A stretch of 64,000 nt of DNA from Cetorhinus maximus (taxonomy: Eukaryota). The DNA lies in the NCBI RefSeq assembly GCF_964194155.1, contig NC_135901.1, forward strand, positions 30,876,001 to 30,940,000, given 5' to 3'. The position numbers were made by a program, and so were the translations under genes. The first letter of the stretch is position 1. Each line of letters starts with the position of its first letter. Of this stretch, positions 6,251-59,296 are shown piece after piece. Below the pieces are notes generated by a model that saw only the letters and a program-made list of their open reading frames with translations, made no database searches and had not been told where the DNA came from.

Positions 6251-7040
6251 TCACTTGTGAACTCGCTGGTGTCTCAGCAGATTTGATGACTGAGTGAATC
6301 TCCCACACACGGAGCAGATGAACGGTCTCTCCTCAGTTTGAACTCTCTGCTGCCTCAGCAGGGCAGATTAAACAGTGAATCCGCTCCCACGCTCAGAACA
6401 GGTGAACAGTCTCTCACCAGTGTGAACTCGCTGGTGTGTCCGCAGGTTGGATATTTGACTCATATATTTGAGTCAGCAGCGTGGATAGATGAGTGAATCC
6501 CTTCCCACACTCAGCGCAGATAAATGGTCTCTCCCCAGTGTGAACTCGCTGGTGAGTCAGCAGGTTGGATGATTCACTGAATCGCTTCCCACACTCAGAA
6601 CAGGTGAATGGTCTCTCACCGGTGTGAACCCGTTGGTGTGTCAGCAGGTGGGATAACTGAGTAAATCCCTTTCCACACTCGGGGCAAGTGAACGGCCTTT
6701 TCCCAGAGTGAACTCGCTGGTGTGTTCGTAGGTTGGATGAATCGCTGAATCTCTTCCCACACTCAGAGCAGGTGAACGGCCTCTTCCTGGTGTGAACTTG
6801 CTGGTGTGTCAGCAGGTGAGATAACTGATTGAATCCCTTACCACAGTCGGAGCAGGTGAACAGCCTCTTCCCAGTGTGAACTCGCTGGTGTGTCTGCAGG
6901 TTGGATGAATAAGTGAATCCTTTCCCACACACAGTGCAGGTGAATGGCCTCTCCCCAGTGTGACTGCGTCGATGAGCTTCCAATTCAGATAGGGATCTGA
7001 ATCCCTTCCCACAGTCTCCACATTTCCACGGTTTCTCCAT
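6251..7040 (-). pseudogene. C2H2 ZNF, 7 fingers then frameshift; probable pseudogene
   Basis: ORF 6414-7040 (MEKPWKC...) is broken near 6460. Remaining fingers run to the family stop at 6251-6253. The family splice acceptor is mutated (cag>ccg, about 7401). Confidence 0.8.
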
Positions 7041-8241
7041 GGTGCGGGTGTCCTTGTGTCTTTCAAGGTTCGACGATCAGATGCATCTTCCTCCACACAC
7101 AGGACATAAGTGTGCTCCCTCCGCTGTGAATGGTCCAATGTTTTACCAGACTTTGTAACTGGTGAAAGCTCTTTCCGCAGTCAGTGCACTGGAACACTCT
7201 CACTCAGGTGTGTGCGTCTTCATGCTATCTTGGTCAGGCAGATGTTTAAAGTCTCCACAAGCAGGTAGGACTGAGAAACATCTCTCCTTCTAGATTCAAA
7301 GGCTGATAATATTCAGGTTCCATGAATCAAATGACTCTGAGACCTTGAAGTTACGTTTGGTTTTGAGTTTTCTGTCTGCAAATCCTCCTCTTCTGATAAC
7401 CGGTAAAAGGAGATTAGATAAATCATCACTGTTGCAACAGGATAGAAATGCAGAACTGACAATTTTAGTTTCTGTAGAACACTGTGTGCTCTCCATTCTC
7501 ACTATGCCATATTCACCCAGTAGTCCTGCACTAAAAATGTGTGTAATATAAAGTAGTCTATTACATGATTAGAGGTACAATGGGGTGTGAGGGAGAACTT
7601 TATTTTGGCAGTGAGTGGTGATGACCTGGAACTCGTTGCCTACGAGGGTGGTGGAAGTGGAGGCGATCAATGATTTCAAAATGAAATTGGATCAGCACTT
7701 GAAGGAAATAAACTTACAGGGGAATGGGGATATAGAGGGGGAATGAGACTGACTGGATTGTTCCACAGAGAGTCGGCATGGACTCAAATTATCGAATGGA
7801 CTCCTTCTGTGCCGTGATGACTCTGACTGGAAATATATAACGCAGCTACAGTGCTATATTACAAGACTAGAAATCAGAATACATTAAGTTTAAATGACCA
7901 TAAATAATATATCTACGATGCACCATATAACACTAGACATATCTCTGTCCTAAATTAATTTACTGTTCCCTTAAATGTCAGCCATCTCCTGGGGGAACCT
8001 CCCCTTTCATTGTGAACATTAGGAAAGAGACCATCCTTTTAGCCAGACAAATAAATGTGTCAAGCTGAGGGAGCAAAGGATGTCAATGTCTTTAAGAGAG
8101 AGAGAGAGAGAGACCTGGGCCAACCTTTCCAGAGTCTGCACCCTCCCTGGATTCACTTCCTTTCCCTTCAGTTCCTGCAAGTCAACAATTTCCCCCCAGA
8201 ATGAGAAAAGAAATGGAAAGGGGGAGAAGAGAAAGTGTTTT

Positions 8242-8770
8242 ACTCACAGATGTTGGACACAGGAGGAAGTTTCAGTCTGTGTGAAGCTCAATCTTCATTC
8301 ACACAAAGCCCGCGCTCTGATTGGCTGGAGAACCAGAGTCTTTTCCCATTGGTCAATTTCTCGCATGAAAACAATGGAGCAGCGAAAGCCTTCGTGGGCC
8401 CGGGAGACCCTTTGACCCCCAGGACGAAATGAGCGTTTGGCGAATGGGAAACGCCATTCTCTGCACATGCGCAACTTCCTCTCTTCCTCGGACATGCGCA
8501 GTCCCGGGGCGCTCGCATAGAGCGGTTTCTCCAGCGCGGGCGATTGTGGGAGCTGCAACCGCCATTACTCATCCGGCCCCATCTCCGAACTCCTGGAACT
8601 GGGATGGAAAGTGGGGGTGAGGGACGCAGTGACCCCGCCCAGAAACAAAGTACACGTGGGTAGTCACTGGATTTGATTGTGACGCCCCCTTAGCAAAACA
8701 ATTTTTTTAACTTCAGGTGTAAAGATTTAGACACCTGGGTGACATATTGGGGAGGGCAATAGGTGAGTGT
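8242..8770. promoter_or_regulatory. Bidirectional promoter module, type B, with non-coding first exons
   Basis: Minus-strand donor GTGAGT at 8242-8247, CCAAT at 8320-8324, CpG-rich core with CATGCGCA (NRF1-like) and CTCCCACAAT (ZNF143-like, minus strand). Plus-strand donor GTGAGT at 8763. Paralogous to 47.8-48.7 kb. Confidence 0.7.
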
Positions 8771-8989
8771 GAAACTGAACCCGAGAGTCAGCACCTTCAG
8801 GGGAGGAGAATTAGGAAGAATCTGGAGGAGGATAGTAGCATGAATTAGTGCGTCAATCAGTCGGGAGGAGGGAGTGTGCGGGAGACAGAGATTTTGAGTT
8901 TGAGAGGGAGATTCATGTTCAATTTAAACCACAATTATCAATTCTGAATTTCGCTCCGGTACCAGCAGTGATGATTTGATGACGTCAAC

Positions 8990-13604: not shown

Positions 13605-14215
13605 TCTTTGTGGAACACCTCCGCTCAGTCCACAAGCATGACCCTGACCTTCCAGTTGCTGCCATTATAATTCACCACCTTGCTCACATGCTCACATTTC
13701 TGTCCTCGGCCTGCTGCAATGTTCCCGAGAAGCCTAACACAAGCTGGACGAACAGCACCTCATCCTCCGATGAGGCACTTTACAGCCTCCTGGACTCAAC
13801 ATTGAGTTCAACAACTTCAGACTGTCAACTTGGTCCTCTGTTTTGATTCTTTTTTGCCAAGTGCCAGTCTGCATCTTGTTTTCATGTTTTTGCTTTCAGA
13901 CAGAGCTGTCCTTTATTCTGCCATTAACACTTACTCTGGACCAATGCTTACTACAACTGTTACCTCTCCCTTTGCCTTTTGTCCCATGATATTTTTGTCA
14001 TTTAATCTTGCCCGCCCTCTAACCAATCACTGACTTTCCCTCTTGTTCTATCTGACCCTCCCCTCTTTCTCCGAAGTATTAACCCCATCACATTTCCCCC
14101 TCTTCTTAGTTCTGAAGAAGAGTCATTTTGGACTCGAAAAGTTAGCTGTTTCTCCCTCTTCACAGATGTTGCCAGACCTGCTGAGTTTTCCTAAACTTCC
14201 TGTATTTATTTCAGA
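13605..14215 (+). mobile_element. Penelope-like element 3' fragment (paralog of 5520-6066)
   Basis: EHLRSVHKHDPDLPVA. Hammerhead motif at 14108-14147 (CTGAAGA-a-gagtc..gactc-GAAA). Terminal gatgttgccagacctgctgag. Confidence 0.85.
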
Positions 14216-14477
14216 TCTACCTGTCATGGTAGGAAAAACACTATTTACTGTCCAAGACAAAATAAATGTCCTTAATCAGCTTTTGTGGGTCATTTCAGTG
14301 GAAATGTGCACTCCCAGGCTCAAAGAGCATCAGCCACTGGAAACAAAGTCGTGAGACCGGCCAGTCCAGCAGAAAGAAACCCTCTGACCCTCCCACTTCA
14401 CCAAGTGTCAGAATGAACACGGTTCAGTCCTGGATGTGATTAACAGCAGCAATAACAGCAGAATCCAACTCCTGGAA

Positions 14478-15154
14478 TCACTTGTGAACTCGCTGGTGTC
14501 TTAGCCAGTGGGATGAATGAGTGAATCACCTCCCACACAGGGAGCAGGTGGATGGCCTCTGCCCAGTGTGAACTCGCTGGTGTTTTTGCAGGCTGGATAA
14601 ATGACTGGATCCCTTCCCACACTGAAAGCAGGTGAACGGCCTCTCCCCAGTGTGAACTCCCTTGTGTTTATGCAGGTCTGATGAATCACTGAATCCTTTA
14701 CCACGCTCAGAGCAGATGAACGGCCTCTCCCTGCTTTGAACTCGCTGGTGCGTCAGCAGGTTGGATGAGTGGGCGAATCCCTTTGCACACACAGAGCAGA
14801 TAAATGGCATCTTCTCCCCAATGTGAAATCGTTGGTGTGACTGCAGGCTGGATAACTGTCTGAATCTGTTCCCACACTCAGTGCAGGTGAATGGCCACTT
14901 CCCGGTGTGAACTCGCTGGTGCCTCTGCAGATGGGTGAACTGAGTGAAACCCTTCCCACAGTCAGGGCAGGTGAACGGCCTCTCCCCGGTGTGACTGCGT
15001 CGATGAGTTTCCAGCGAGATGGGGCTTTGAATCCCTTCCCACAGTCAGAACAGATGAACGGCCTCTCCCCGGTGTGACTGCACCGATAAGTTTCCAGCTT
15101 CGATGGGGAACAGAATCCCTTCCCACAGTCCCCACATTCCCACGGTTTCTCCAC
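14478..15154 (-). pseudogene. C2H2 ZNF pseudogene, about 8 fingers
   Basis: Start mutated to GTG ([10 protein letters not shown]), frameshifts, and TGA in the last finger (SLCGR*). Only the acceptor (15514-15516) and about 45 nt of intron remain upstream. Confidence 0.85.
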
Positions 15155-15876
15155 GGTGCTCGTGCCCTTGTGTCTCTCCAGGTCCGACAATCAGTTGAAG
15201 CCTTATCCACACACAGAACATGTATAAGTCTCTCCTCACTGTGAATGGTGATGTTTTTTCAGGCTGTGTAACTGGTCAAAGCTCTTTCCACAGTCAGTGC
15301 ACTGGACTCTCACTTGGGTGTGTGTGTCTCGGTGTTTTTCCAGTCACACTGAGGCTTAAAACCTTTTGAAGCAGGCAGAACAGACAAACATTTCCCCAGC
15401 TTGGTTCAAAGAACCAATGATATTCAGGTCCCATTTAATCAAATGAGTTTGGCAGATCTTGATGTGACGTTTGGTTTGAGATTTCTGTCTGCAAATCTTT
15501 CTCTTCTAATATCCTGTAAAGGGAGTTTACAAAAATCATCACTGTCAGTACAGGATAGATTACTAGTCCAGTGATATTACCAGAATGCCAGCATCACTCC
15601 CTGTATTTAGTTTAGATCTACCTGTAGTGGTAGAAAAAACTATTTACTATCCAGGATAAAACAAATGTCCTTCATCAGCTTTTGCAGATCATTTCAGTGG
15701 AAATGTACACTCCCAGGCTCAAAGAGCATCAGCCCACTGGAAGCAAAGTCGTGAGATTGGCCAGTCCAGCAGAAAGAAACCCTCCAACCTCCCACTTCAC
15801 CAAGTGTCAGAATGAACATGGTTCAGTCCTGGATGTGATTAACAGTGGCAATAACAGCAGAATCCAACCCCTGGAA

Positions 15877-17142
15877 TCACTTGTGAACTCGCTGGTGTCT
15901 TAGCCAGTGGGATGAATGAGTGAATCACCTCCCACACAGGGAGCAGGTGGATGGCCTCTGCCCAGTGTGAACTCGCTGGTGTTTTTGCAGGCTAGATAAA
16001 TGACTGGATCCCTTCCCACACTCAGAGCAGGTGAACAGTCTCTCCCTGGTGTGAAGTCGCCTGTGTTTCTGCAGGTTGGATGACTGAGTGAATCTCTTTC
16101 CACACACACAGCAGGTGAATGGTCTCTCCCCGGTGTGAACTCGCTGGTGTCGCAGCAGGTTGGATGAATCACTGAATCCCTTCCCACACTGAAAGCAGGT
16201 GAATGGCCTCTCCCCAGTGTGAACTCCCTTGTGTTTATGCAGGTCGGATGAATTACTGAATCTCTTCCCACATTCAGAGCAGGTGAATGGCCTCTCCCCA
16301 GTGTGAACTCGCTGGTGTGACTGCAGTGTGGATGAATTCCTGAATGTCGTCCCACATTCAGAGCAGGTGAACGGTCTCTCCCCTGTGTGAACTCGCTGGT
16401 GTGATTGCAGATTGGATAACTGAGTGAATCCTTTCCCACACTCGGAGCAGGTGAACAGCCTCTCCCCAGTGTGAACTCTCTGGTGTCACAGCAGGTTGAA
16501 TGAATCACTGAAACCCTTCCCACACTGGAAGCAGGTGAACAGTCTCTCCCGACCGTGAACTCCCTTGTGTGTCTGCAGGTCAGATGAATTACCGAATCCC
16601 TTCCCACATTCAGAGCAGGTGAACGGCCTCTCCCCAGTGTGAATTCGCTGGTGTGTCAGCAGGTTGGATGAGTGAGCGAATCCCTTTGCACACACAGAGC
16701 AGACGAATGGCATCTTCTCCCCAGTGTGAAATCGCTGGTGTGACTGCAGGCTGGATAACTGTCTGAATCTGTTGCCACACTCAGTGCAGGTGAATGGCCA
16801 CTTCCTGGTGAGAACTCGCTAGTGCCTCTGCAGGTGGGAGAACTGAGTGAAACCCTTCCCACTGTCAGGGCAGGTGAATGGCCTCTCCCCAGTGTGACTG
16901 CACCGATGAGTTTCCAGCTGAGATGGGGCTTTGAATCCCTTCCCACAGTCAGAACAGGTGAACGGCCTCTCCCCGGTCTGACTGCGTCGATGAGTTTCCA
17001 GCTGAGATGGGGCTTTGAATCCCTTCCCACAGTCAGAACAGATGAACGGCCTCTCCCCGGTGTGACTGCGCCGATGAGTTTCCAGCTTCGATGGGGAACA
17101 GAATCCCTTCCCACAGTCCCCACATTCCCACGGTTTATCCAT
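15877..17142 (-). pseudogene. C2H2 ZNF pseudogene, about 15 fingers (tandem paralog of 14478-15154)
   Basis: ATG at 17142 ([10 protein letters not shown]), TAG at 16819, and the same TGEKMP frameshift and SLCGR* end as its neighbour. Confidence 0.85.
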
Positions 17143-17580
17143 GGTGCTCGTGCCCTTGTGTCTCTCCATGTTCGACGGTCAGTTGAAGCCTTGTCCACAC
17201 ACAGAACATGTATAAGTCTCTCCTCACTGTGAATGGTGATGTTTTTTCAGGCTGTTTAACTGGTTAAAGCTCTTTCCACAGTCAGTGCACTGGAAACACT
17301 CTCACTTGGGTGTGTGTGTCTCTCGGTGTTTTTCCAGTCACACTGAGGCTTAAAACCTTTTGAAGCAGACAGAACAGACAAACATTTCCCCAGCTTGGTT
17401 CAATAGAACCAATGATATTCAGGTCCCATTTAATCAAATGAGTTTGGCAGATCTTGATGTGACGTTTGGTTTGAGATTTCTGTCTGCAAATCTTCCCCTT
17501 CTAATATCCTGTAAAGGGAGTTTACAAAAATCATCACTGTCAGTACAGGATAGAAATTCAGAGCAGGCAATTCTAATTTC

Positions 17581-19310
17581 TCATAGAGTCATAGAGGTCT
17601 ACAGCACAGAAAAAGGCCCTTTGGCCCATTGCGTCTGCGCCGGTCAAACAAGTACCTCACTATACTAATCCCATTTTCCAGCACTCGGCCCATAGCCTTG
17701 TATGCCATGGCATTGCAAGTGCACTCCAAATACTTCTTAAATGTTATGAGGGTTTCTGCCTCTACCACACTTTCAGGCAGTGAGTTCCAGATTCCCACCA
17801 CCCTCTGGGTGAAAAAATTCTTCCTCACATCCCCTCTAAACCACCTGCCTCTTACCTTAAATCTACGCCCCCTAGTTATTGATCCCTCCACCAAGGGGAA
17901 AGGTTCCTTCCTGTCTACCCTATCTATGCCCCTCATAATTTTATACACCTCAATCATGTCCCCCCTCAATCTCCTCTGCTCCAGAGAAAATAACCCCAGT
18001 TTATCCAATCTCTCCTCACAACTAAAACTCTCCAGCCCAGGCAACATCCTGGTCAATCTCTTCTGCACTCTCTCTCGTGCAATCGCATCCTTCCTACAAT
18101 GCAGATTCCAGAACTGCATGCAATACTCTAGCTGTGGCCTAACGTATAAAACACAGTTCCAGCATAACCTCCCTGCTCTTATATTCTCTGCCTCGGCTAA
18201 GAAAGGCAAGTATCCCATATGCCTTCTTACCCACCTTATCTACCTGTCCCGCGACCTTAAGGGACCGGTGGACATGCACACCAAGGTTCCTTTGATCTTT
18301 GGTACTTCCCAGGGTCCTACCACTCATCGTGTATTCCCATGCCTTGTTTGTCCTGCCCAAGTGCATCACCTCACACTTATCCGGATTAAATTCCATTTGC
18401 CACTGATCAGCCCATCTGACCAGCCCGTCTATATCCTCCTGTAATCTAAGGCTATCCTCCTCACTATTTAGCACCCCAACAATTTTTGTGTCATCCACGA
18501 ACTTACTGATCAACCCTCCTTCATTCAAGCCTAAATTGTTTATATATACCACAAACAGCAAGGGACCCAGCACCAATCCCTGTGGAACCCCACTGGACAC
18601 AGGTATCCAGTCACAAAAACACCCCTCAACCATCACCCTCTGCTTCCTGCCACTCAACCAATTCTGGATCCAATTTGCCTAATTGCCTTGGATCCCATGG
18701 GCTCTTACCTTCGTTATCAGTCCCCTGTGCGGTACCTTATCAAAAGCCTTGCTGAAGTCCAAGTAGACTATGCTTGCCCTCATCTACACACCTGGTCACC
18801 TCTTCGAAAAATTCAATCAAATTGGTCAGACATGACTTCCCCTTAATAAAACCATGCTGACTGTCCTTGATTAACCCCTGCCTCTCCAAGTGTGGATTAA
18901 TTCTGTCCCTCAGAATTGCTTCCAATAGTTTCCCCACCACTGAGGTTAGACTGACTGGCCTGTAGTTCCCTGGTTTATCCCTTCCTCCCTTCTTGAATAA
19001 TGGTACCCAATTGGCTGTCCTCCAGTCCTCTGGCACCTCTCCTGTGGCCAGAGAGGTATTGAAAATTATTGCCAGTGCCCTTGCTATCTCCTCCCTTGCC
19101 TCACTCAACAGCCTGGGATACATTTCATCCGGGCCTGGAGATTTATCTACTTTTAATCCTGTCAGGCCACTTAGAACCTCCTCCCTTTCAATGCTAATTT
19201 CTTCAATTACATCACCGTTCTTCTGCCTGATTTCCAAACTCACGTTGCCCCTCTCACTTGTGAACAATGACACAAAGTATACATTTAGAACCCTACCAAC
19301 ATCTTCCGGC
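17581..19310 (-). mobile_element. 5'-truncated CR1 LINE (RT region and 3' UTR) in a ZNF intron
   Basis: ORFs 18740-19369, 18139-18657 and 17589-18218 (KSPGPD, PGNYRPVSLTS, QHGF, GVPQG, KFVDDTK). Tail (ctctatga)2. CTCATAG at both ends (17580, 19310). Confidence 0.95.
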
Positions 19311-20491: not shown

Positions 20492-20749
20492 AAATTGTTC
20501 CCTTAAATGTCAGCCATCTCCTGGGGAAACCACCCCTTTAATTGTGAACATTAGGAAAGAGATCATCATTTTAGCCAGACAAATAAATGTGTCAAGCTGA
20601 GGGAGCAAAGGATATCAATGTCTTTAAGAGAGAGAGAGAGAGACCTGGGCAAACCTTTCCAGAGTCTGCACCCTCCCTGGATTCACTTCCTTTCCCTTCA
20701 GTTCCTGCAAGTCAACAATTTCCCCCCAGAATGAGAAAAGAAATGGAAA

Positions 20750-32984: not shown

Positions 32985-33659
<675 letters not shown>

Positions 33660-39092: not shown

Positions 39093-40019
<927 letters not shown>

Positions 40020-45712: not shown

Positions 45713-45864
45713 GCATCAGCCCACTGGAAGAAAAGTTGTGAGACCGGCCAGTCCAGCAGAAATAAACTCTCCGACCCTCCCACTTCACCAACTGTCAGAA
45801 TGAACATGGTTCAGTCCTGGATGTGATTAACAGGAGCAATAACAGCAGAATCCAACTCCTGGAA

Positions 45865-46624
<760 letters not shown>

Positions 46625-47797: not shown

Positions 47798-48662
47798 ACT
47801 CACAGATGTTGGACACAGGAGGAAGTTTTAGTCTGTGTGAAGCTCAATCTTCATTCACACAAAGCCCGCGCTCTGATTGGCTGGAGGATCAGAGTCCTTC
47901 CGGTCCTCCAACTCTTCCCATTGGTCAGTCCCCTGTATGCTGACAATGAGGGACAAGATGCTGTGCCCAAGTAGCCAATGGGAAAATCTGGAGAACCGGA
48001 AGAGCACTGCTCATCCAACCAATCAGACTGCGGATCTTGTTCTGGTCCCCGCCTCTCTCCCTCTGACATAGAACCATAGAACACTACAGCACAGAAAAAC
48101 AGGCCATACGGCCCTTCTAGTCTGTGCCGAAATATTATTCCGCTAGTCCCATTGACTTGCACCTAGTCCATAACCCTCCAGACCTCTCCCATCCATGTAT
48201 CTATCTAATTTATTCTTAAGACTTAAGAGTGAGCCCGCATTTACCACGTCAGATGGCAGCTCGTTCCACACTCCCACCACTCTCTGAGTGAAGAGGTTCC
48301 CCCTAATGTTCCCCCTAAACCTTTCCCCTTTCACCCTAAAGCCATGTTCTCTCGTGTTTATCTCTCCTAATCTAAGTGGAGAGAGCCTGCGCAGTCCCAG
48401 GCCGCCCGCCCGCGCAGCGGATAAAGCGGTTTCCCCAGCGCGGGGGATTGTGGGAGCTTCGGCCGCCATTACTCATCCAGAGCCCAGACTCCAAATTCCT
48501 GGGACTGGGATGGAAAGTGGGGGTGGGGGGTGCAGTGACCCCGCCCCGACACAAAGTACATGTGGGTAGTCACTGACGTCCCCTTAGCAAAACAGTTTGC
48601 TAACTTCAGGTGTAAAGATTTAGACACCTGGGTGACATATTGGGGAGGGCAATAGGTGAATG
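47798..48662. promoter_or_regulatory. Bidirectional promoter module, type B, interrupted by CR1
   Basis: Minus donor at 47798-47803, four CCAAT/ATTGG boxes, GC box, ZNF143-like GATTGTGGGAG. Plus donor-like GTGAAT at 48656. Confidence 0.7.
48067..48386 (-). mobile_element. CR1 3' fragment inside the promoter
   Basis: TREHGFRVKGERFRGNIRGNLFTQRVVGVWNELP. Tail ttctatggttctatg. Confidence 0.88.
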
Positions 48663-48889
48663 TGAAACTGAACCCGGGAGTCAGCACCTTCAGGGAAGGA
48701 GAATTGGGGAAATGCAGGAGGTGGATAGTACGATCAATTGGGGTTACTACCAATAGGGAGAATCGAGTATGTGGGGGACAGAGATTTCAAGTTTGAGAGG
48801 GAAAAGGATTTTCTTTGTCAACTAGAATATCAGTTTCAAATTTCTATTGTGTATTTACTACAATGGCTTTTGTAAACACCTTTTAAAGT

Positions 48890-49580
48890 GCAATGGAGAG
48901 GGAGGATTTGCAGATGGGAAAATCAAACCAAGCATCACGTAATGATTTGACAGAGCCATTTGATTCAGCAGGGCCTGATGGTCATCAGCGATTGAATATG
49001 GGAGGAGAAATGTTTGTCTGTTCGAAAATACTTCAAACATCATTGTGACTGAAAGAGCATCGAGACAAACACAACCATGAGAGAGTGTTCCACTGCACTG
49101 ACTGTGGAAAGAGCTTTAACCAGTTACACAGCCTGAAAAGACCATTTCCAGCAGGAAGAGACCATGTATATGAGGCTTCAGAAGATTGTTGAAATTGAAG
49201 ACACACAAGGGCACCTGCACCAGGGAGAAACTGTGGAAGTGTGGGGACCGTGCAACAGAATTCTATTTCCCCTCTGCACCCCACATATCTGTGCCGGAAA
49301 CTCATCAATGCCAGGGACATGCCATTCACCTGATCTGAGTGGGAATGGATTCACTCAGCTTCACTCGCACCTGCTTTTAGACCAGTGAGATCACACTGTG
49401 AAGAGGCTGTTCACCTGTTCGGTTTGTGGGAAACAATCAGTGATCCATCCAACCTGCTCTTTGCATGTCGCAGTGCAGATTTCCACTGAAATGATTCACA
49501 AAAGCTGATGAAGTACATTTATTTTATCCTGGATAGTAAATAGTGTTTTTCCTACCACTACAGGTAGATCCAAATTAAAT
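48890..49580 (+). pseudogene. Heavily decayed ZNF unit
   Basis: Recognisable leader, no ATG (acc-AGG-gag), about 3 broken fingers, distal 3' UTR. Confidence 0.8.
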
Positions 49581-52227
49581 ACATTTGTCTTGTTCCACTG
49601 TGTCTACAGCAGAGGGCCAGGCCAGTCGGCTCAATTGGTCTATGTCAGTATTTATGCTCCACATGAGCCTCCACCCACCCCTCTTCATCTCCCCCCCATC
49701 AGCATATCCTTTCTCCCTCATGTATGTATCGAGATTCCCCCTAAATGTATTCATGCTATTCACCTCAACCACTCGATGTGGTAGTGAGTTCCACATTCTC
49801 ACCACTCGCTGGGTAAAAAGGTTTCTCATCAAATCCCTGTTGGATTATTGAACCCCGTCATTATCTTAAAGACTTCCATCAGGTTACCCTTCAGTCGTCT
49901 CTTTTCTAGAGAAAAGCAGCCCCAGCCTTTCCTGAAGGTTAAATGCTCTCAGTTTCTGGTATTATTCTTGTGAATCTTTGTTGCCCCTTCTCCAGTGCCT
50001 CTATTTCCTTTTTCTAAATGGAGATCAGAAAATGTTGACAGTGCTCCCAGTGTAGTCTAACCATGGTTCAAAACAATTTGAATATAACCTCCCTGTTTTT
50101 CAATTCTATCCCTCCAGAATGGAACCCTATATCTGGGACCCACATTTTAGGAAAGATGTGAAGTTCTTAGAGAGGGTGCAGGGCAGATTCACGAGAATGG
50201 CACCAGGGATGAAGGACGTCATTTAGTTGGAGAGACTGGTGCAGCTGAAATTATTTTATTTTGACCATCGTGACATTAGGAGAGAGGAGGCCATTCATCG
50301 CATTGAGTCCATGCCAGCTCTCCATGGAGCCGCCTGTTAAGTTAGCACCCGCCTTTCTTCCTTCCTGCCTGTTCACCAAAAACCACCACCTCCCCCCGCC
50401 CCCGCCCCATTCCCAAAGCTGCCCAAACCCACCCGGCCCAATACCCCGGACGTATCTTGCTCCAGGATTCCGGACGTATCTTGCTCCAGGATTCATTGCA
50501 CCTTCTTGGAACCGATTGCAGTCCTGGAAGTGCCCTAATGCCCTCTTGGCACGGCTTGGAATGCCGGAACTAGTGCCCAATTCGATTGGCGAGTGGCTCC
50601 TGAGGGCGTGACTCCCTCCCCAGCAAAGGGCAGAAGTCCTGGAAGTCTCACCCTGCCCCTGCTGAACCCGCCCGCAGTGTGTTCTGGCTGCGGGGTGATC
50701 TGGTGTGCAGCGAGTCGGCTTCCTTAAAGTCATAGCATCATTACGGCACAGAAGAAGTCCATTCGGCAACCGGAATATGCATCGATTTTCTGTGGAGCAT
50801 TCAGTCAGTCCCATTCCCCCTCTGTTCCCCATAACCCTGCAAGTTGATTTCCTTCAAGTGCCTATCCAATTTCATTTTGAAATCACTTATTTCCCTTTCC
50901 ACCACCCTTGTTGGCAGCGAGTTACAGATCATGACCACTCTATGCCTAAATAAAGTTCTTCCTCACATCCCCTTCCCACTGTATCTTTGAGAAATACAGT
51001 ACTGTACATCACTCATTTTCAGTCCAGTTATACGTACATGTATATATATATATGTGTGTGGAGATATACAGCCTGCATAAAGAATTTCAGATCTCTCTGT
51101 CCAGGACATGAAGCTGGATTTTAAATCTTTGACAAGAAGGATGAGCAAATTGTCTGTGTGTAGCTGAAAGACAATTTGCATTTTTTCTCTGATTCTTATC
51201 ACCTGATGCCATTAATCCTTCTCAAACACTCTGATGAGAAACATCAGGTATTGTTAAGGGGAGACGATAATGTCCTGATTGAGGAAACTGCAGGTCCACT
51301 GACTTTCCAAAATCAGTTGCCTTATCTTGCTCCATGTCCAGTTGCATTTGTGCCTTTTTCATGGAAGGTTTAGTCAACAGGAAGGGTATCTCACTAGAGT
51401 TTACACCAGTCCTGATAAAGTGGCTGACTCCAGCTAGTTTGCATGAAAACACAACTTTTTTTAGTGACTTGAATGTGTTCACATCACCAAAATTAAACAA
51501 GTAGAACTTTCATACTCCTTAACCCTGTGTCGATCCTCACTATGAGGTGAATCTGGGTAACATTTTCACCAATCTGATCCACATACTGTCGAGGTGTAGC
51601 CACTGTCTAACACAGCACAGTTGAATGAGTCTGTCACTAACACACTCATCACTGGACCAAAGCTCCTTGTGACTAGTACAATTCCTTCAAAGTGATCATC
51701 ATCATCATCTTCAGCCTCAGAATTCTCTGTATCATGTGTCACTTCGAAGACCCTGATTTTCCACTTTGGGCAGTTCATCACATAATGATATTTTGAGTCA
51801 GACCTGAAACACCTGTTAACTGTTCCCTGGACATTCCTGGAGTTCATTCACCTATTAGTGCTGTTCCAATCCTGTTTTTTGTTGTGTTATCCAGATCTGC
51901 TAAAGATGCTTTCGTCCTCATTCGAAACCTGTCAAAGTCCAACTATGCTTCATAGGCATCCAATAGATCATCTTTCTCGTAAATCTCATCAATGAACCCG
52001 AATAGAAGATCCAAACCTTCATCAGTATCCAACTGACAGGCATCCAGCTCAATAAATACTTTTCTTCTGATTTTATTTTTGTTGGGAAGTGACGATGCCA
52101 AGACCAGACCTTGTTTCCTCCTTGGTAGGGACGTAACCCGTGTCCACATCTCCACTTCATTCTTCCACTGGTCGTGTGGCTCAGACTCCGAGAACATCGG
52201 CGGGTAATCAGACCCTGACAATTTCCA

Positions 52228-52372
52228 TAATATAAAAGCAAATTACTGCAGATGCTGGAAATATGACACAAAAACAGAAAGGGTTGGAAAAACTCAGCTG
52301 ATATAGCAGCATCTGTGGAGAGAGAAACAGAGTTAACCTTTTGAGTCCGTATGGCCCTTTTTCAGAGCAATT
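52228..52372 (-). mobile_element. 145-bp Penelope terminal insertion with a decayed hammerhead
   Basis: 15-bp TSD CCCTGACAATTTCCA at 52213 and 52373. Homologous to 37891-38040. Confidence 0.85.
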
Positions 52373-52609
52373 CCCTGACAATTTCCACTTATTTTCAGCC
52401 ATTTCTCACAAAAGCTACTCGGATTGTAAGCTTCTGACTGAAATTTTATTTTCATTTAGTTTCCAACCTCGACTATTAGACAAGTATTCTCTGTTACCAC
52501 GTTATAATCCTGACAGCCTGATGGTGAAGAAACTGGAGCCAGTCTTTACTTTGGATGGATTTATTCACAGAGTGAAACATTACAGGTAATGGCCTCCTGA
52601 CGACACCCC

Positions 52610-52903
52610 GCTGTGAGACAGTAACTCTTTCGAGTACATTCACAGTTCTTGGTTTCCGGGAGTGGGACATGAACCCACAACCTTCTGATTCAAAGACGAG
52701 GGTGCTATGAACTGAGCCACAGCTGACACCTCCTGCTGTGAGGCAGTAACTCTTTCGAGTTATCAACAGATCGCATGTAACTCTTTCGAGTACATTCACA
52801 GTTCTTGGTTTCCGGGAGTGGGACATGAACCCACAACCTTCTGATTCAAAGGCGAGGGTGCTATGAACTGAGCCACAACTGACACCTCCTGCTGTGAGGC
52901 AGT
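52610..52903 (-). repeat. Tandem duplication of a tRNA-SINE head inside the copia LTR
   Basis: About 127-bp near-identical units at 52621-52748 and 52777-52903. Minus strand TGGCTCAG...GGGTTCATGTCCC. Confidence 0.75.
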
Positions 52904-53035
52904 AGTTGCCTATCTATATGTGCTCAAGTAACCATCCAATAAATGCCCTCCACCTGTATATATTTTACCTCAATTGACACAATTAACACCCATAGTCCAA
53001 GCAGGTTGATTAACCAAGTGAATCCCTTTTCACAC

Positions 53036-54907
53036 TCAGAGCAGGTGAACAGCCTCTCCCCGGTGTGACCCTGTTGATGTGTCAGCAGGTAGGATGAAAG
53101 AGCGAATACCTTTCCACACATGGAGCAAACGAAGGGCCTCTCTCCAGTGTGAATTTGCCGGTGTGTCTGCAGATGGGACGACCGAGTGAATCCTTCCCAC
53201 ATCGAGAGTGGGTGAATGGTCTTTTCCAGTGTGAACCTGTTGGTGTGTCAGCAGGTGGGATAACTGAGTGAATCCCTTCTCACACACAGTGCAGGTGAAT
53301 GGCCTCTCTCCGGTGTGAACTACCTGGTGAGCCACTAGGTGGGATGACAGAGTGAATCCCTTCCCACACTCAGAGCAGGTGAACAGCCTCTCCCTGGTGT
53401 GAACTACCCGGTGTGTCACTAGATGCGCAGACTGAGTGAATCCCTTCCCACACTCAGAGCAGCTGAATGGCCTCTCCCCAGTGTGAACTACCTGGTGTGC
53501 TACTAGATGGGATGACTGAGTGAATCCCTTCCCACACTCAGAGCAGGTGAAGGACTTCTCCCTGGTGTGAACTACCTGATGTGCCACAAGGTGTGAGGAC
53601 TGAATGAATCCCTTCCCACACACAGAGCAGGTGAAGTGCTTCTCCCTGGTGTGAGATACCTGGTGTGCCACTAGGTGGGACGACTGAGTGAATCCCCTCC
53701 CACACTCAGAGCAGGTGAACGGCCTCTCGTCGGTGTGAACTACCTGGTGTGCCACTAGGTGTGAGGACTGAGTGAATCCCTTTCCACACACAGAGCAGGT
53801 GAACAGCCTCTCCTTGGTGTGAACTACCTGATGTTCCATTAGGTGTGAGGAATGAGTGAATCCCTTTCCACACACAGAGCAGGTGAACGACCTCTCCTTG
53901 GTGTGAACTACCTGGTGAGCTACTAGGTGCGAGGGATGAGTGAATCCCTTTCCACACACAGTGCAGGTGAATGGCCTCTCTCTGGTGTGAACTATCTGGT
54001 GTGGCACTTGTTGCGATGAATGAGTGAATCCCTTCCCACACACAGAGCAGGTGAATGGCCTCTCCTCAGTGTGAACTACCTGGTGTGCCACTGGGTGGGA
54101 TGACTGAGTGAATCCCTTCCCACACTCAGAGCAGGTGAATGGCATCCCCTTGGTGTGAACTACCTGGTGTGCCACCAGGTGCACAGACTGAGTGAATCCC
54201 CTCCCACACTCAGAGCAGGTAAACGGCCTCTCCTCTGTGTGAACTACCTGGTGTGCCACTAGGTGGGATGACTGAGTGAATCCTTTCCCACACACAGAGC
54301 AGGTGAACGGCCTCTCGCTGGTGTGAACTACCTGGTGTGCCACTAGGTGGGATGACTGAGTGAATCCTTTCCCACACACAGAGCAGGTAAACGGCCTCTC
54401 CCTGGTGTGAACTACCTGGTGTGCCACTAGGTGCACAGACTGAGTGAATCCCCTACCACACTCAGAGCAGGTGAACGGCCTCTCCTCTGTGTGAACGACC
54501 TGGTGTGCTACTAGGTGGGATGACTGAGTGAATCCTTTCCCACACACAGAGCAGGTGAACGACCTCTCCCTGGTGTGAGCGACTTGGTGTGACACTAGGT
54601 GGGATGACTGAGTGAATCCCTTCCCACACTCAGAGCAGGTGAACGGCTTCTCTCCGGTGTGAACTACCTGGTGTGCCACTAGGTGGGATGACTGAGTAAA
54701 TCCTTTCCCACACACAGAGCAGGTGAGCGGCCTCTCCCTGGTGTGAGCGATCTGGTGTGCCACTAGGTGTGAGGAATGAGTGAATCCCTTCCCACACACA
54801 GGGCAGATGAATGGCCTCTCCCCAGTGTGAATGCATCGATGAGTTTCCAGCGCAGATGGGGTTTGAAATCCCTTCCCACAGTCCCTACATTTCCAGAGTT
54901 TCTCCAT
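53036..54907 (-). CDS. C2H2 zinc-finger protein, 20 in-frame fingers, frameshift at about 53225
   Basis: ACC-ATG-G at 54907 (MEKLWKC). Open through 20 fingers. About 3 more fingers lie out of frame before the copia LTR. Donor at 56657, acceptor at 55662-55664. Confidence 0.8.
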   Translation of the reverse strand: MEKLWKCRDCGKGFQTPSALETHRCIHTGERPFICPVCGKGFTHSSHLVAHQIAHTRERPLTCSVCGKGFTQSSHLVAHQVVHTGEKPFTCSECGKGFTQSSHLVSHQVAHTRERSFTCSVCGKGFTQSSHLVAHQVVHTEERPFTCSECGRGFTQSVHLVAHQVVHTRERPFTCSVCGKGFTQSSHLVAHQVVHTSERPFTCSVCGKGFTQSSHLVAHQVVHTEERPFTCSECGRGFTQSVHLVAHQVVHTKGMPFTCSECGKGFTQSSHPVAHQVVHTEERPFTCSVCGKGFTHSSQQVPHQIVHTRERPFTCTVCGKGFTHPSHLVAHQVVHTKERSFTCSVCGKGFTHSSHLMEHQVVHTKERLFTCSVCGKGFTQSSHLVAHQVVHTDERPFTCSECGRGFTQSSHLVAHQVSHTREKHFTCSVCGKGFIQSSHLVAHQVVHTREKSFTCSECGKGFTQSSHLVAHQVVHTGERPFSCSECGKGFTQSAHLVTHRVVHTRERLFTCSECGKGFTLSSHLVAHQVVHTGERPFTCTVCEKGFTQLSHLLTHQQVHTGKDHSPTLDVGRIHSVVPSADTPANSHWREALRLLHVWKGIRSFILPADTSTGSHRGEAVHLL

Positions 54908-55185
54908 GGTGCACGTGCCCTTCTGTATCTCCACGTCCGATGATCAGATGGTGCCTCATCCACACGCACAATACATGTGTGGTGTCTCCCCTTTGTGAAT
55001 GGTGTGATGCTTTCTCAGTCTGTGTAACTGGTTAAAGCTCTTTCTACAGTCAGTGCACTGGAAACACTCTCACTCGGGTGTGTGTGTCTCGGTGCTTTTC
55101 CAGTCACGCTGATGTTTGAAACATTTTGAAGCAGACAGAACAGACAGATATTTCTCCTTCTAGATTCAAAGGCCAATGATATTCA

Positions 55186-55341
<156 letters not shown>

Positions 55342-56656
55342 TCAGTTGAAGCCTCATACACGCACCTAACATGTGAACTGTCACTCCCCACTGTGAATGG
55401 TAATGCTTTCTCAGTCTGTGTAACTAGTTAAAGCTCTTTCCACAGTCAGTGCACTGGAATACTTTCAATCAGCTGTGTGTGTCTTGGTGCTTCTCCAGTC
55501 ACATTGATGTTTAGAATCTTTACCCACAGACAGAACAGACAAATGTTTCTCCACATTCAAAGATCAATTATGTTCAGGTCCTGATGAATTGAATGACTGT
55601 GAGATCTTGATGTGATTTTTGGTTTCAGATTTCTGTCTACAAATCCCCCCCCTCTAATATCCTGTAAAAGGAGTTTACAAAAGTCATCACTGTCAGTACA
55701 AGACAGAAATTCATAACAGACAATTCTAGTTGCTATGAAACATTCTTCCCTCTCCTGTTACCCAAAATCTATAAATCTCAGTCCCACACACTCTCCCTCC
55801 ATTCTCACTCTGCGGTGCCTAATATACACCCTCCTCATTCTCCTGAAGGTGCAAATTCATCTTAATCGACAGATCCGTGTTCAGCACTGTCAGTCCAGCA
55901 CACAGAGCTGCGAGTCATATACATGGTCATATTACTGGAATACAAACGTGTGTAATATAATGTAATATGTATTGCATGATTAGAGTTATGGGCGGATGGA
56001 AGAAAGAACTGTAATTAGGAGTGAGTGATCATGACCTGGAATTGAGTTCATCTGAGGATGGTGGAACTGGAGATGATCTCTGATTTCAGAATGAAATTTC
56101 ATGGACACTTGACGGAAATGTACTTGCAGGGGGATGGGGATATAGAGGGGGAATGGGATTGACTGAATTCGTCGATGGAGAGTCGAGATGGACTCAAGTT
56201 GCCGAATAGACTCCTCCTGTGCCGTAATGACTCTGTGACAGGAAATATACAACATAGCTACAGTACTATATCGCACGGTTAGAAAAAATAATAAATGTAC
56301 TTTATTACAGAACCATAAATATTATATCTGATGAGTACCATCTAACAACACTAGACACATCTCTGTCCTATATTAATTCACTGTCCCCTTAAATGTCAGC
56401 CATCTCCTGGGGAAACCAGCCCTTTAATTGTGAACATTAGGAAAGAGACCATCCTTTTAGCCAAACAAATAAATGTGTCAAGCTGAGGGAGCAAAGGATG
56501 TCAATGTCTTTAAGAGAGAGAGAGAGAGACCTGGGCCAACCTTACCAGAGTCTGCACCCTCCCTGGATTCACTTCCTTTCCCTTCAGTTCCTGCAAGTCA
56601 ACAATTTCCCCCAGAATGAGAAAAGAAATGGAAAGGGGGAGAAAAGAAAGTGTTTT

Positions 56657-57132
56657 ACTCACAGATGTTGGACACAGGAGGAAGTTTTAGTCTGTGTGAA
56701 GCTCAATCTTTATTCACACAAAGCCCGCGCTATGATTGGCTGGAGGACCAGAGTCCTTCCGGTCCTTCAACTCTTCCCATTGGTCAGCCCCTCAGCATGA
56801 CGGGAAGAGGCGGGTCTCCCCCGCACATGCGCAGCTTCCCCTCTCCCGTGTTCCCTGAGCGGCTTCTCGCTCTGGCCGGAGCCTTCAGCCGGTTTCCTGG
56901 AAACATTGGCTCGAGGAGGGGGAGGGGGAGGGGGAGGGGGAACAATGGATGGGGGGCGGGGCTCCCGTGTCCGCGCGCCTGGCCTGCAGGCTGGGACCCG
57001 AGAACGTCACCGCGGAGCAGAGTGATTCCTATTGGCTGATTCAGGCAGGGTTCCATTGTGGACGGTCACAATGCGGAAGTTGGACAATTAGTTTCAGACG
57101 AAGACTTCCTCCTGTGCCCAACATCTGTGAGT
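56657..57132. promoter_or_regulatory. Bidirectional promoter module, type A, flanked by inverted intron arms
   Basis: Donors GTGAGT at 56657-56662(-) and 57127-57132(+). ATTGG x3, GC box, CGGAAGT, CACATGCGCA. Confidence 0.8.
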
Positions 57133-58453
57133 AAAACACTTTCTTTTCTCCCCCTTTCCATTTCTTTTCTCATTCTGGGGTCAAATTGTTGACTTACAGG
57201 AACTGAAGGGAAAGGAAGTGAATCCAGGGAGGGTGCAGACTCTGGAAAGGTTGGCCCAGGTCTCTCTCTCTCTCTCTTAAAGACATTGACATCCTTTGCT
57301 CCCTCAGCTTGACACATTTATTTGTCTGGCTAAAAGGATGGTCTCTTTCCTAATGTTCACAATTGAAGGGGTGGTTTCCCCAGGAGATGGCTGACATTTA
57401 GAGGGACAGTAAATTAATATAGGACAGAGATATTTCTAGTTTTGTTATATGGTACATATTTAATATAAATTATTTATGATTCTGTAATAAAATGCATTTA
57501 TTATTATTTCCAGTCTTGTAATATAGTACTGTAGCTGCCTTATATCTTTCCAGTCACAGAGTCATTATGCCACAGAAGGAGACCATTCAGCAACTCAAGT
57601 CCATGCTGACTTAGTGTAGAGCAATCCAGTCAGTCCTATTTCCCCTCGATATCCCTATTCCCCTGTAAGTTTATTTCTTCATGTGTTCATCCAACTTCAT
57701 TTCAAAATCATTGATCATCTCTGCATCCCTCGAGGAAGCGAGTTCCAGGTCAAATAATCCTTCAAATGAATTTAATTCATCCAGTCCAATTTCATGTTGA
57801 AACTATCGATCATCTCTGCTTCCTCTACCCTCCTATATAGTGAGTTGCCAAACGTCTCTGTATCTGGGACAAGAAGCAGTGAGCTTGGATCTCTTGATGA
57901 ACATGAATCGGCACCTTCAGGAGAATTGGGAGGGTGTATATGAGGTACAGCAGAGTGAGAATGGAGGGAGAGTGTGTAGGACGGAGATTTACAGCTTTTT
58001 GGGAATGAGAGAGGAAAGAATGTCCCATAGAAACTAGAATTGTCTGTTCTGAATTTCTATCCTGTGCTGACCATAATGACTTTTGTAAACTCCTTTTACA
58101 GGATATTAGAAGAGAGGATTTGCAGACAGAAAACTCAAACCAAACATCACATCAAGATTGATCCAGCAACTCATTTCTCTGAAGTCTGAATATCACCTGC
58201 CTTTGAATCCAGGAGGAGAAATGTTTGTCTGCTCTGTCTGCTTCAATAGTTTCAAACATCAGTGCGACTGGAAAAGCACCGAGACACACACACCCTAGTG
58301 AGAGTGTTCCAGTACACTGACTGTGGAAAGAGCTTTAACCAGTTGCACCACCTGTTTGTACTACTCACAGTGGGGAGAGACCGTATGCATGTTCAGTGTG
58401 GACGAAACTTCAACTGACCCTCGAAACTGGAGAGTCACAAGCACACCCGCACC

Positions 58454-59296
58454 ATGGAGAAACCGTGGAAATGTGGGGACTGTGGGAAGGGTTTCAAAGC
58501 GCCATCTGAGCTGGAGATTCATCGACGCAGTCACACCGGGGAGAGGCCATTCAATTGCTCTGTGTGTGGGAAGGGATTCAGTCATTTATTCGCCCTGCAA
58601 AGACACCAAGGAGTTCATACTGGGGAGAGGCCATTCAGCTGCTCTGACTGTGGGAAAGGATTCAGTGATTCATCTGCCCTGCTGAGACACCAGCGAGTTC
58701 ATGCTGGGGAGAGGCCGTTCACCTGCTCCAAGTGTGGGAAGGGATTCACTCAGTCATCCCACCTGCAGACACACCAGCGAATTCACACTGGGGAGAGGCC
58801 TTTCACTTGCTCTGAGTGTGGGAAGGGATTCAGTGATTCATCCACACTGCGGACACACCAGCGAGTTCACACTGGGGAGAGGCCATTCATCTGCTCGGAG
58901 TGTGGGAAGGGATTCACTATGTCAAGCTACTTGCTGAGACACCAGCGAGTTCACACTGGGGAGAGGCCGTTCGTCTGCTCTGTGTGTGGTAAAGGATTCA
59001 CTCTGTTATCCAACCTGCAGGCACACAAACGAGTTCACACTGGGGAGAGGCCGTTTATCTGCCCGGTGTGTGGGAAAGGATTCACTCAGATATTCAACCT
59101 GCAGACACACCAGCGAGTTCACACTGGTGAGAGACCATTCAACTGCTCTGAGTGTGGGAAGGGATTCAGTGATTCATCCAACCTGCGGAGACACCAGCGA
59201 GTTCACACCGGGAGAAAGCCGTTCACCTGCTCCGTATGTGGGAAAGGATTCACTCTGTTATCCAACCTGCAGAAGCACCAGCGAGTTCACAAGTGA
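58454..59296 (+). CDS. C2H2 zinc-finger protein, 10 fingers, 280 aa
   Basis: Uninterrupted ORF with ACC-ATG-G start. Donor at 57127, acceptor at 58100-58101, full 3' UTR with ATTAAA at about 59565. Confidence 0.92.

Follow-up and report, generated by a model that had tools for sequence, protein, structure and literature searches.

Near-identical gene ends and diversified finger arrays in a KRAB-less C2H2 zinc finger cluster of the shark Cetorhinus maximus

How has a cluster of zinc finger (ZNF) genes come to hold so many of its members in back-to-back pairs? The window, by which we mean the whole stretch of 64,000 nucleotides analysed, sits within a shark cluster of about 4.6 Mb with several hundred KRAB-less C2H2 genes. 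About half of these are arranged as back-to-back pairs, and their products consist of zinc fingers only, without an effector domain. The first-pass annotation proposed that the cluster was built from one head-to-head unit, a ZNF gene on either side of a bidirectional promoter. The five promoter modules and the two core types (A and B) that it described at 8.2-8.8, 20.7-21.2, 38.3-38.8, 47.8-48.7 and 56.6-57.1 kb are all found:

7939..8952, no strand: module with a canonical arm (minus donor near 8247) and core B; far side without ZNF
20496..21298, no strand: module with a flipped core A; plus donor 21207/21208 intact, far donor lost
38041..38800, no strand: module with a canonical arm and core A; far exon 1 with GTAAGG, after which a deletion extends through the acceptor
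47735..48790, no strand: module with a canonical arm, an insertion, core B and far donor GTGAAT
56070..57721, no strand: module with core A between inverted-repeat arms; donors 56663 (minus) and 57126 (plus)

The outward-facing donors ascribed to these modules are seen at 56.8 kb, but the far donor at 20.8 kb has been lost (ATGAGG for GTGAG) and the far-side deletion at 38.5 kb takes out most of the intron plus the acceptor. Similarly, a minus ZNF on the left and a plus ZNF on the right form an intact pair at 56.8 kb; at 48.8-49.5 kb, however, only a relic of the plus ZNF is left. The arms of the 56.8-kb module are mutually inverted repeats (56070-56694 versus 57721-57095, 87%), a feature absent from the earlier description. 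An old inverted duplication may have set the starts of two genes facing away from each other across a CpG-rich core, after which core A would have retained a gene on each side and core B one gene and a dead relic.

Of the 46 core A modules in the 1.164 Mb sampled, 38 are flanked by a ZNF start on either side, whereas core B has any far-side start in 3 of 40 and a far-side gene with at least five fingers in none of 40; ZNF exon remnants lie on 21 of the 40 core B far sides. Divergent first exons less than 1 kb apart are therefore the rule for core A (38/46) and fail for core B. In core A the first exons are about 0.45 kb apart, the region has a GC content of 0.59 and a CpG o/e of 0.69, and CCAAT, ETS and GC boxes are present. 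Vertebrate bidirectional CpG-island promoters typically carry NF-Y, GABP, NRF1 and ZNF143 motifs. Judged by consensus motif patterns, ZNF143-like sites fall in core B (24-28/40, against 0-1/44 in core A) and the strict NRF1 palindrome was not found in the window. A looser NRF1 pattern, drawn up after viewing the sequence, occurs in 37 of 44 core A copies. The shark modules thus differ from vertebrate bidirectional promoters in that ZNF143-like sites are nearly confined to the one-sided core B, and in that both partners are paralogues, probably from an inverted duplication.

The genes and elements of the window are:

649..1410, plus: ZNF gene, broken (stop in finger 2)
6251..7040, minus: ZNF gene, 208 aa, 6 fingers, start 7040, end out of register
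7526..7830, plus: intronic CR1 3' fragment, antisense to the gene
14195..15559, minus: broken partial tandem copy of the 17-kb gene (GTG start)
15596..17581, minus: ZNF gene, broken (ORF of 107 aa, 2 fingers)
17584-19390: CR1 LINE with RT, inserted in the intron of the 17-kb gene (one RVT_1 Pfam match, at 18743-19390)
23963..25295, plus: exon 2 of an intact ZNF gene (ATG 24315, 326 aa, 11 fingers); a relic acidic ORF and three dead fingers make up its 5' part
25242..26113, plus: 3' UTR handle, homogenised
27061..27903, plus: intact ZNF ORF, 280 aa, 10 fingers
32827..34264, minus: ZNF gene, broken (stop in finger 4)
39093..40620, plus: ZNF gene, broken (stop in finger 4), with 3' UTR handle
45708..47204, minus: ZNF gene, broken (ORF of 51 aa)
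48794..50172, plus: dead far-side ZNF relic with 3' UTR handle
53036..55661, minus: intact ZNF gene (ATG 54907, 623 aa, 20 fingers)
58102..59296, plus: exon 2 of an intact ZNF gene (ATG 58454, 280 aa, 10 fingers)
59297..59723, plus: 3' UTR handle, homogenised

The genes are clustered, and each carries its C2H2 fingers in tandem, joined by TGE(K/R)P linkers, within a single 3' exon. Of 129 finger arrays scored, 76 are intact and 53 broken. A full-length array follows only 4 of the 13 start sites of the window (24315+, 27061+, 54907- and 58454+), and among its five modules both genes are intact only at 56.8 kb. The gene starting at 54907 is preceded by a partial tandem duplication of its own 5' end, with a dead AAG start at 55305. 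A promoter module belonging to the 27061..27903 ORF was not found, and a run of N lies upstream. The proposal that the cluster is KRAB-less is confirmed: the PF01352 (KRAB) profile gave four matches, on C34 and C22 and none on C24, with 150 of 152 candidates from the genome (G000) scored, and KRAB is absent among the best 25 Pfam families for five window proteins. The GIY-YIG-like, integrase-like, gag-like and CR1 ORF2-end frames of the window likewise matched no Pfam family. A 21-mer at the donor has 324 copies in the genome and its reversed control none, and its recurrence is therefore not due to chance.

If a fixed ZNF-promoter-ZNF duplicon, copied as a unit, had built the cluster, the intronic CR1 fragment common to the copies would be readily explained. 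This fragment is present at all six sites reported (7.6, 19.5, 37.5, 47.3, 56.0 and 57.6 kb) and in 79 of 122 module genes; its ORF2-end frame is readable at four of the six, where it is antisense to its gene. Some whole-pair inheritance does exist: three of 20 scored A modules are whole-pair duplicates, a Mantel test points the same way (r=0.36, p=0.0045, n=20), slot type is kept by 52 of 56 close neighbours, and slot labels on the tree are more clustered than when shuffled (29 versus 43.8 changes). However, core B is one-sided, and in a tree of 96 genes (the 122 module genes less 26 without the exon-2 segment; starts missed by the regular expression, such as some far-side genes, fall outside the counts) left and right genes are mixed and do not form clades, with 29 changes of slot label (minimum 2). 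Moreover, 14 of 17 close module pairs, which are not independent and represent about five events, share one partner only, and how far apart two cores are says little about the distance between their genes (r 0.07-0.16, not significant). No constant unit whose ends are shared and whose partners are inherited together was found, nor was a common unit end. As the sole mode, copying of a fixed duplicon is largely refuted, and we consider it very unlikely.

The blocks that were copied are larger. Segmental duplications in the cluster measure about 40 and 45 kb, and each takes in several modules together with intergenic TEs. One covers more than half of the window:

28299..64000, continuing to about 67.2 kb, plus: segmental duplicate, collinear with G000 C24:27041892-27084508, 89-95% identical, 3.9 Mb away

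Multi-module segmental duplication is the mode of copying, and partners were swapped afterwards. The view that copying took place at the DNA level rather than by retroposition is upheld by the common antisense CR1 fragment, by the collinear segmental duplicates and by intron-poor copies that are deletions. Retroposition was rejected for the short far-side genes, which retain the donor and intron start, and for the 38.5-kb module, where the deletion fuses the intron to the interior of an exon and not at exact splice sites.

The exchange of partners and promoters can be related to the gene ends, which are nearly the same throughout the cluster. Similarity reaches 91-98% in exon 1, the intron start and the 3' UTR, versus about 80% for the gene middle. 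For segments covered to at least 60%, median paralogue identity is 0.976 at the intron start (n=99), 0.943 in the next part of the intron, 0.918 in exon 1 and 0.914-0.940 in the 3' UTR; between these handles it is 0.796 in CR1, 0.80-0.81 in the 5' UTR, 0.821 in the first fingers and 0.72-0.74 at 4-fold sites. The following features illustrate this in the 56.8-kb module:

57092..57147 (approximate ends), plus: gene-conversion tract, near-arm donor block inside the far arm
57127..57430, plus: 5' handle (intron start), median paralogue identity 98% then 94%

The right donor of the 56.8-kb module is a converted tract, as it differs from its segmental twin, which has the far-arm type. A near-arm donor block is found in 8 of 40 far arms, and a far-arm block in none of 79 near arms. 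Intron starts inside the cluster match the cluster majority at 99.2%, versus 92.2% in 15 dispersed copies, which may be dead and several of which are near-copies of each other. Exon 1, the intron start and the 3' UTR carry little or no tree signal. Over bins of increasing exon-2 distance, handle distance is flat (0.023 to 0.025 at the intron start, 0.079 to 0.088 in exon 1) while CR1 distance climbs from 0.053 to 0.215; the first 165 nt of the 3' UTR retain some signal (0.049 to 0.090).

The same similarity might be produced by purifying selection on shared regulatory elements such as a cassette exon, RNA structure or 3' UTR sites. Conservation is maximal right at the donor and the stop codon, a possible cassette exon (57200-57249) lies within the most conserved block of the 5' handle, and handle similarity neither decays with distance over 4.4 Mb nor is higher within modules. 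The last two observations count against simple local conversion, which predicts both a decay and a within-module excess, and hairpin conversion between the two arms of a module is unlikely to be the main route, since within-module distance equals between-module distance. Selection alone, however, predicts closer handles in close duplicates, and these are not seen. Handle distance is equal in intact and broken genes, and dead core B relics have handles at full identity: the relic at 48.8-49.5 kb has AGG at its start, no intact finger and 66-70% identity to live genes, while its 3' UTR handle is 89-92% identical to theirs. The discrete tract at 56.8 kb also speaks against selection. The window has no Rfam match, and the intron block is thus not explained by a known small RNA; folds of the majority intron start vary with the boundaries chosen, and we therefore claim no RNA structure. 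Selection as the cause of handle identity seems unlikely to us. Copying between genes is the likely means by which their front and back ends are kept alike while the base-reading residues diversify. Handle identity and one tract are observed, and from them we infer an ongoing conversion process. The handles (promoter and first donor; 3' UTR) would be sites of ectopic gene conversion and crossing-over, allowing partners and promoters to swap while the finger cassettes remain about 20% diverged.

Translation likely starts at a linker-derived Met (MEKPWK) in a strong Kozak context. A Met arising in a finger linker may have become the start, so that the former acidic N-terminus, together with three dead fingers, now lies in the 5' UTR. 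Among 52 exon-2 5' frames none reaches the main ATG without a stop and 13 are open as far as the first relic finger, which rules out an in-frame N-terminal domain or read-through. The stops in the relic frame are conserved among copies, and the relic ORF matches no Pfam family.

Our results suggest that the zinc ligands and the invariant first finger, with P-S-x-L-E, are preserved by selection, which diversifies helix positions -1, 3 and 6. In recent duplicates (pairs up to 12% apart with at least four aligned fingers) ω is 0.04-0.07 at zinc ligands and core, indicating strong purifying selection. The excess of change predicted for helix -1/2/3/6 is found family-wide at -1, 3 and 6 (ω 1.5-2.4) but not at +2 (about 0.5-0.6), in 64 genes left from 76 intact ones via 71 after irregular first three fingers and close kin were dropped; between-finger conversion can lower dS in such estimates. 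In recent duplicates positions -1/3/6 give ω 0.96-1.03, which exceeds the value at other finger positions (p=0.0003, 24 pairs) without rising above 1. For finger 1 versus helix synonymous sites ω is 1.07 (0.88-1.30) at kappa 1. One could read the cluster as mostly neutral amplified debris without a repertoire function, given the 53 of 129 broken arrays, the lack of a full array at 9 of 13 window starts, ω near 1 at contact sites in recent pairs and the several upstream ATGs in every 5' UTR. Yet the constraint on ligands and core, ω above 1 at depth, helix fingerprints that differ among all 76 intact arrays and a first finger common to other sharks make this highly improbable. A birth-and-death set of effector-less tandem C2H2 genes, copied in multi-gene segmental duplications and reshuffled at its two handles by ectopic conversion and crossing-over, is in our judgement the probable nature of the cluster.

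The three splice junctions proposed earlier (57126|GT..AG|58102, 56663|GT..AG|55661 and 21207|GT..AG|23963) are all canonical. Contigs from relatives, paralogues whose RNA status is guessed, splice from the near-arm donor to exon 2. One of them (X3, guessed to be RNA, with no strand or start site) covers the far side at 56951-57127 and ends at the donor; another (X11, RNA status also guessed) ends at 57251 and has a joint at 57203, near the bounds of the possible cassette exon. Over 14.5 kb finger-to-finger joints dominate the contig alignment, which gives only hints.

Lineage-specific ZNF clusters in general are already well known, and cartilaginous fish are the outgroup to the lineages with KRAB-ZNF and FiNZ-ZNF genes. 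KRAB-ZNF proteins bind TEs and recruit TRIM28/H3K9me3. A literature search on sharks and elasmobranchs found no published description of this family. The same first finger occurs in 'zinc finger protein 239-like / XlCGF-like' proteins of Heterodontus, Mustelus, Scyliorhinus and Chiloscyllium, the best matches being 73-79% identical over residues 1-60, so that the family is lineage-specific at the elasmobranch level and not more narrowly. These names are automatic, and several of the models have implausible N-termini or a LINE fusion (e.g. P0010).

The cluster resembles three known systems. Like the cyprinid FiNZ-ZNF family, it numbers hundreds of two-exon poly-C2H2 genes that are clustered, restricted to one lineage and free of KRAB, with raised dN/dS at base-contacting residues (Wells et al. 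2023, PMC10547256). In that family the 28-aa acidic FiNZ domain is conserved and translated, and TE repression by FiNZ-ZNFs was tested in zebrafish, whereas the shark acidic part is severed by stops and frameshifts (0/52 in frame); the main text of that paper does not mention sharks, chondrichthyans, or bidirectional or head-to-head arrangements (PMC10547256). Tetrapod KRAB-ZNF/poly-ZF genes likewise lie in clusters that evolve by birth and death; they gain and lose fingers, their specificity residues are under positive selection, and short conversions occur between paralogues (Emerson and Thomas 2009, PMC2604467). The shark cluster differs in having no KRAB match on C24, promoter and 3' UTR handles far more alike than the coding exon, and about half of its modules as head-to-head pairs with inverted-repeat arms. 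In mouse V1R clusters broad promoter regions of paralogues are also more similar than flanking DNA, and gene conversion has been proposed, speculatively and per subfamily, so that all copies compete equally for factors (PMC1955453). In the shark both gene ends are involved, in hundreds of putative transcription-factor genes, and comparison with a segmental twin reveals one tract.

An anti-transposon role for the cluster is plausible by analogy. Of the possible roles the likeliest would be a broadly co-expressed repertoire of sequence readers directed against repeats or transposons, acting through occlusion or a finger-bound cofactor, although taken on its own we hold this to be somewhat less probable than not. 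More doubtful is a fuller version by analogy, in which sharks would have a third independent transposon-reading system: some 600-1,000 effector-less ZNFs on one chromosome arm, with conversion-maintained handles that let the arrays be exchanged as cassettes behind a common promoter, an invariant P-S-x-L-E first finger docking a common silencing cofactor in place of KRAB/FiNZ, and an ancestral acidic N-terminus amputated into the 5' UTR. The cluster would be a clear case of recombination-homogenised promoters beside diversifying coding exons, and its shared handles mean that hundreds of genes could be targeted together at the Kozak/MEKPWK start or the 98% intron block. If effector-less arrays do silence transposons, the arms race between ZNFs and TEs would be older and more general than the known effector domains.

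In our analysis the window contains 13 tandem C2H2 gene starts, on both strands, and five promoter modules, that is, promoter blocks with outward first donors, at 8, 20.8, 38.5, 48 and 56.8 kb, where the first-pass annotation had placed them. The three introns that it proposed (57126>58102, 56663>55661 and 21207>23963) are canonical GT..AG, and its CR1 fragment was found in all six introns named, antisense to the host gene in the four of these with a readable ORF2-end frame. Its layout, a minus ZNF to the left and a plus ZNF to the right (missing at 8.8 kb), is too tidy. Only the 56.8-kb module has both genes intact (623 aa and 280 aa); the two arms of this module form inverted repeats with 87% identity over 628 bp. 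The 20.8-kb module has lost its far donor (near being the canonical arm and far the opposite one), the far-side acceptor of the 38.5-kb module has been removed by deletion, the 'plus ZNF' at 48.8 kb is a relic with no intact fingers, and full arrays follow only four of the 13 starts. The original observation is real and was partly misread. Other features around the modules are as follows.

1660-5508, 28013-30540, 51100-52600 and 59801-64000: decayed LTR-retroelement-like repeat, abundant between modules (88-94% identity), with integrase-like and gag-like frames that have no Pfam match

17584-19390 and 34541-36340: CR1-type LINE pieces within ZNF introns, younger than the shared CR1 fragment, with an RVT_1 match at 18743-19390

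21298-23499: young repeat present as two inverted copies in the intron of the gene at 24 kb, with a GIY-YIG-like frame that has no Pfam match; we take it to be Penelope-like, and it has many cluster copies at 88-95%

27061 (+): intact gene that lacks a promoter module, with an N run covering some of the sequence upstream; the 21207 donor may splice to it as an alternative last exon

53036-54907 (-): gene of 20 nearly uniform QSSHLVAHQVVH fingers, internally amplified (~84% self-identity when offset by 84 bp); the segmental twin encodes 735 aa with 24 fingers, and the clade lies on a long branch

Two module classes are distinguished by their promoter cores. In the 1.164 Mb sampled, 43 of the 46 core A modules have a near-side ZNF start, 40 a far-side one and 38 both, and ORFs of at least five fingers lie on both sides in 13. 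The 40 core B modules have a near-side start in 36 and a far-side start in three, none of the latter with five fingers, and 21 far sides retain ZNF exon remnants. Both cores are CpG-rich, and CCAAT, ETS-like, GC-box, CRE-like and NRF1-like sites exceed shuffles in both, while ZNF143-like sites are essentially confined to core B. Because the patterns are general consensus sequences, one of them composed after the sequence had been viewed, and the module copies share ancestry, these counts show motif presence, not independent enrichment. Further head-to-head modules (C24 near window-relative -138.7, -39.7 and +130.7 kb; L163, L166 and L170), with arms ~0.65-0.85 kb apart and a weak or absent core A/B match, probably represent a third core type. 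Far-side and some near-side genes fall into two C-terminal classes, HQ(R/Q)VHK followed by the 3' handle (43/88) and SHTD without it (8/88).

The window occupies 30,876,001-30,940,000 of contig C24, and all 40 core A matches scored, from 515 candidates, lie on this contig at 26.96-31.31 Mb. A donor 21-mer has 324 exact copies in the genome, 77 of them inside the sampled 1.164 Mb. A start 35-mer has 313, and among the first 100 listed, 97 fall within C24 0.3-25.5 Mb. From this copy number and the presence of the 35-mer at 46 of 154 sampled starts, a rough extrapolation gives ~1,000 starts across the genome, with ~600 in the dense cluster. No ZNF start occurred in ten 10-kb samples of C24 31.5-33.0 Mb. 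By identity, the nearest named proteins come from sharks, at 73-79% across residues 1-60. The cluster is KRAB-less, as had been claimed, PF01352 having four matches in the genome and none on C24. Three of these matches, the near-identical exons L171, L172 and L173 on contig C34 (9.12-9.40 Mb; 28-35 bits, above cut-off), look like PRDM9-type KRAB exons and are probably paralogues of that type; the 10 kb examined contained no finger array.

In core A the far-side exon 1, which ends in phase 2, often encodes MRKLDNELQTKTSSSGQH. Exon 2 begins with an acidic frame (ILEGEDLQTEISNQ...), then three relic fingers whose stops are shared (TAA 64, TGA 65 and TGA 80, each the commonest codon at its site). 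All 52 such frames fall short of the main ATG, and Pfam gives no match for the relic ORF. The main ATG, within a finger linker and with A at -3 and G at +4 in 10/10 window starts checked, would be the translation start. At the sequence level the N-terminus is amputated; the ancestor would have had a longer one, and the product would now consist of fingers only. Finger 1 is distinct, with P at +1 in 70/71 genes, S at +2 in 67/71 and E at +5 in 69/71, and other sharks have a similar one; it may offer a surface for a cofactor. In the relatives' sequencing runs X1, X3 and X11, whose RNA status is only guessed, five X1 contigs break at 56662 and resume at the exon-2 start, and X3 contigs have joints 56661 -> 55646 and 57127 -> 58123. 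The large run X20 has no recorded kind and behaves like DNA; contig ends left loose at the acceptor there carry intron letters, and no splice joint occurs among the rows listed. The relatives' contigs support splicing of the family rather than of the window locus itself and carry no strand or start-site information. Genes of the cluster may be co-expressed, and TE targeting is a putative role.

The proposal that copying took place as DNA stands, but a single fixed duplicon does not. Window positions 28.3-67.2 kb, three modules and the TEs between, are collinear with C24:27.042-27.085 Mb (89-95%), and a second duplicated block spans ~45 kb (90-96%). Slot, the left or right position, is kept in 52/56 nearest neighbours <10% apart, and the distances of the two partners are correlated (r=0.36, p=0.0045, n=20). 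The gene tree (n=96) nevertheless requires 29 slot changes, against a minimum of 2 and 43.8 in shuffles, and 17 close module pairs share one gene in 14 cases and both in 3, implying about five independent swaps. Distances between cores are no guide to distances between genes. The cluster has undergone segmental copying with partner swaps. Apparently near-identical dispersed copies of one core B module, sharing segment layout and identities (L154, L158, L159 and L161; C24 0.39-15.7 Mb) suggest long-range segmental copying along the chromosome arm.

With our own codon model, recent duplicates (24 pairs, both genes intact in 6) gave ω of 0.04-0.07 at ligands and core and of 0.61-0.65 elsewhere. 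At helix -1/3/6 ω was 0.96-1.03, higher than in the rest of the finger (p=0.0003; p=0.018 for intact pairs) but not >1. At family depth, in fingers 1-3 of 64 thinned intact genes, ω(-1,3,6) was 1.74 (1.59-1.88) with kappa 1 and 2.43 with kappa 3, or, measured against synonymous sites of the helix, 1.51 and 2.08, estimates that finger shuffling can bias; finger 1 alone was non-significant under the strictest setting. Helix +2 gave 0.5-0.6. The excess change expected at helix contacts is seen at -1/3/6 at family depth, and not at +2 or, relative to neutrality, in recent duplicates. Helix fingerprints differ in all 76 intact arrays (323 signatures among 698 fingers).

Median paralogue identity is 0.91 in core A, 0.92 in exon 1, 0.976 in the first 124 nt of the intron, 0.94 in its next part, 0.80 in CR1, 0.85 at the intron end, 0.80-0.81 in the 5'UTR, 0.82 in the first two fingers and 0.91-0.94 in the 3'UTR. 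Four-fold sites are only 0.72-0.74 identical, so the gene middle is old, not merely positively selected. Selection or recombination could keep the near-identical end segments, or handles, alike, and four results favour recombination. Handle distance is equal in close and distant genes, while CR1 distance follows exon 2; broken genes and dead core B relics retain handles; likeness to the cluster majority is 92% outside the dense cluster versus 99% inside, although several outside copies are mutually near-identical and may be dead; and the 56.8-kb right donor carries a conversion tract, a ~50-nt near-arm block in place of the far-arm type found in its segmental twin and in other far arms. The near-arm block occurs in 8/40 far arms, the far-arm block in 0/79 near arms. 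Against recombination, handle similarity neither falls with distance nor is greater within modules, the proximal 3'UTR retains some tree signal, and conservation is highest at functional boundaries. A 50-nt stretch that may be a cassette exon (AG\|...\|GT) at 57200-57249 (+), in a 98%-conserved intron block, also counts against it; an X11 joint lies at 57203 and one X11 contig ends at 57251. We infer that ongoing conversion may cause the handle likeness.

Wells et al. (PMC10547256) describe FiNZ-ZNFs in a main text where 'shark' and 'bidirectional' are absent, the Squalomix preprint's main text lacks 'zinc' (its supplements may list ZNF clusters), and listings and abstract openings contained no paper on this shark ZNF family. 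Other papers report selection and short conversions in poly-ZF genes (PMC2604467), propose that conversion homogenised V1R cluster promoters (PMC1955453), and describe a single PRDM9-type gene in the whale shark (PMC11603059) and partial PRDM9 in some cartilaginous fish (PMC5519329). Such a partial PRDM9 would fit with promoter-directed recombination.
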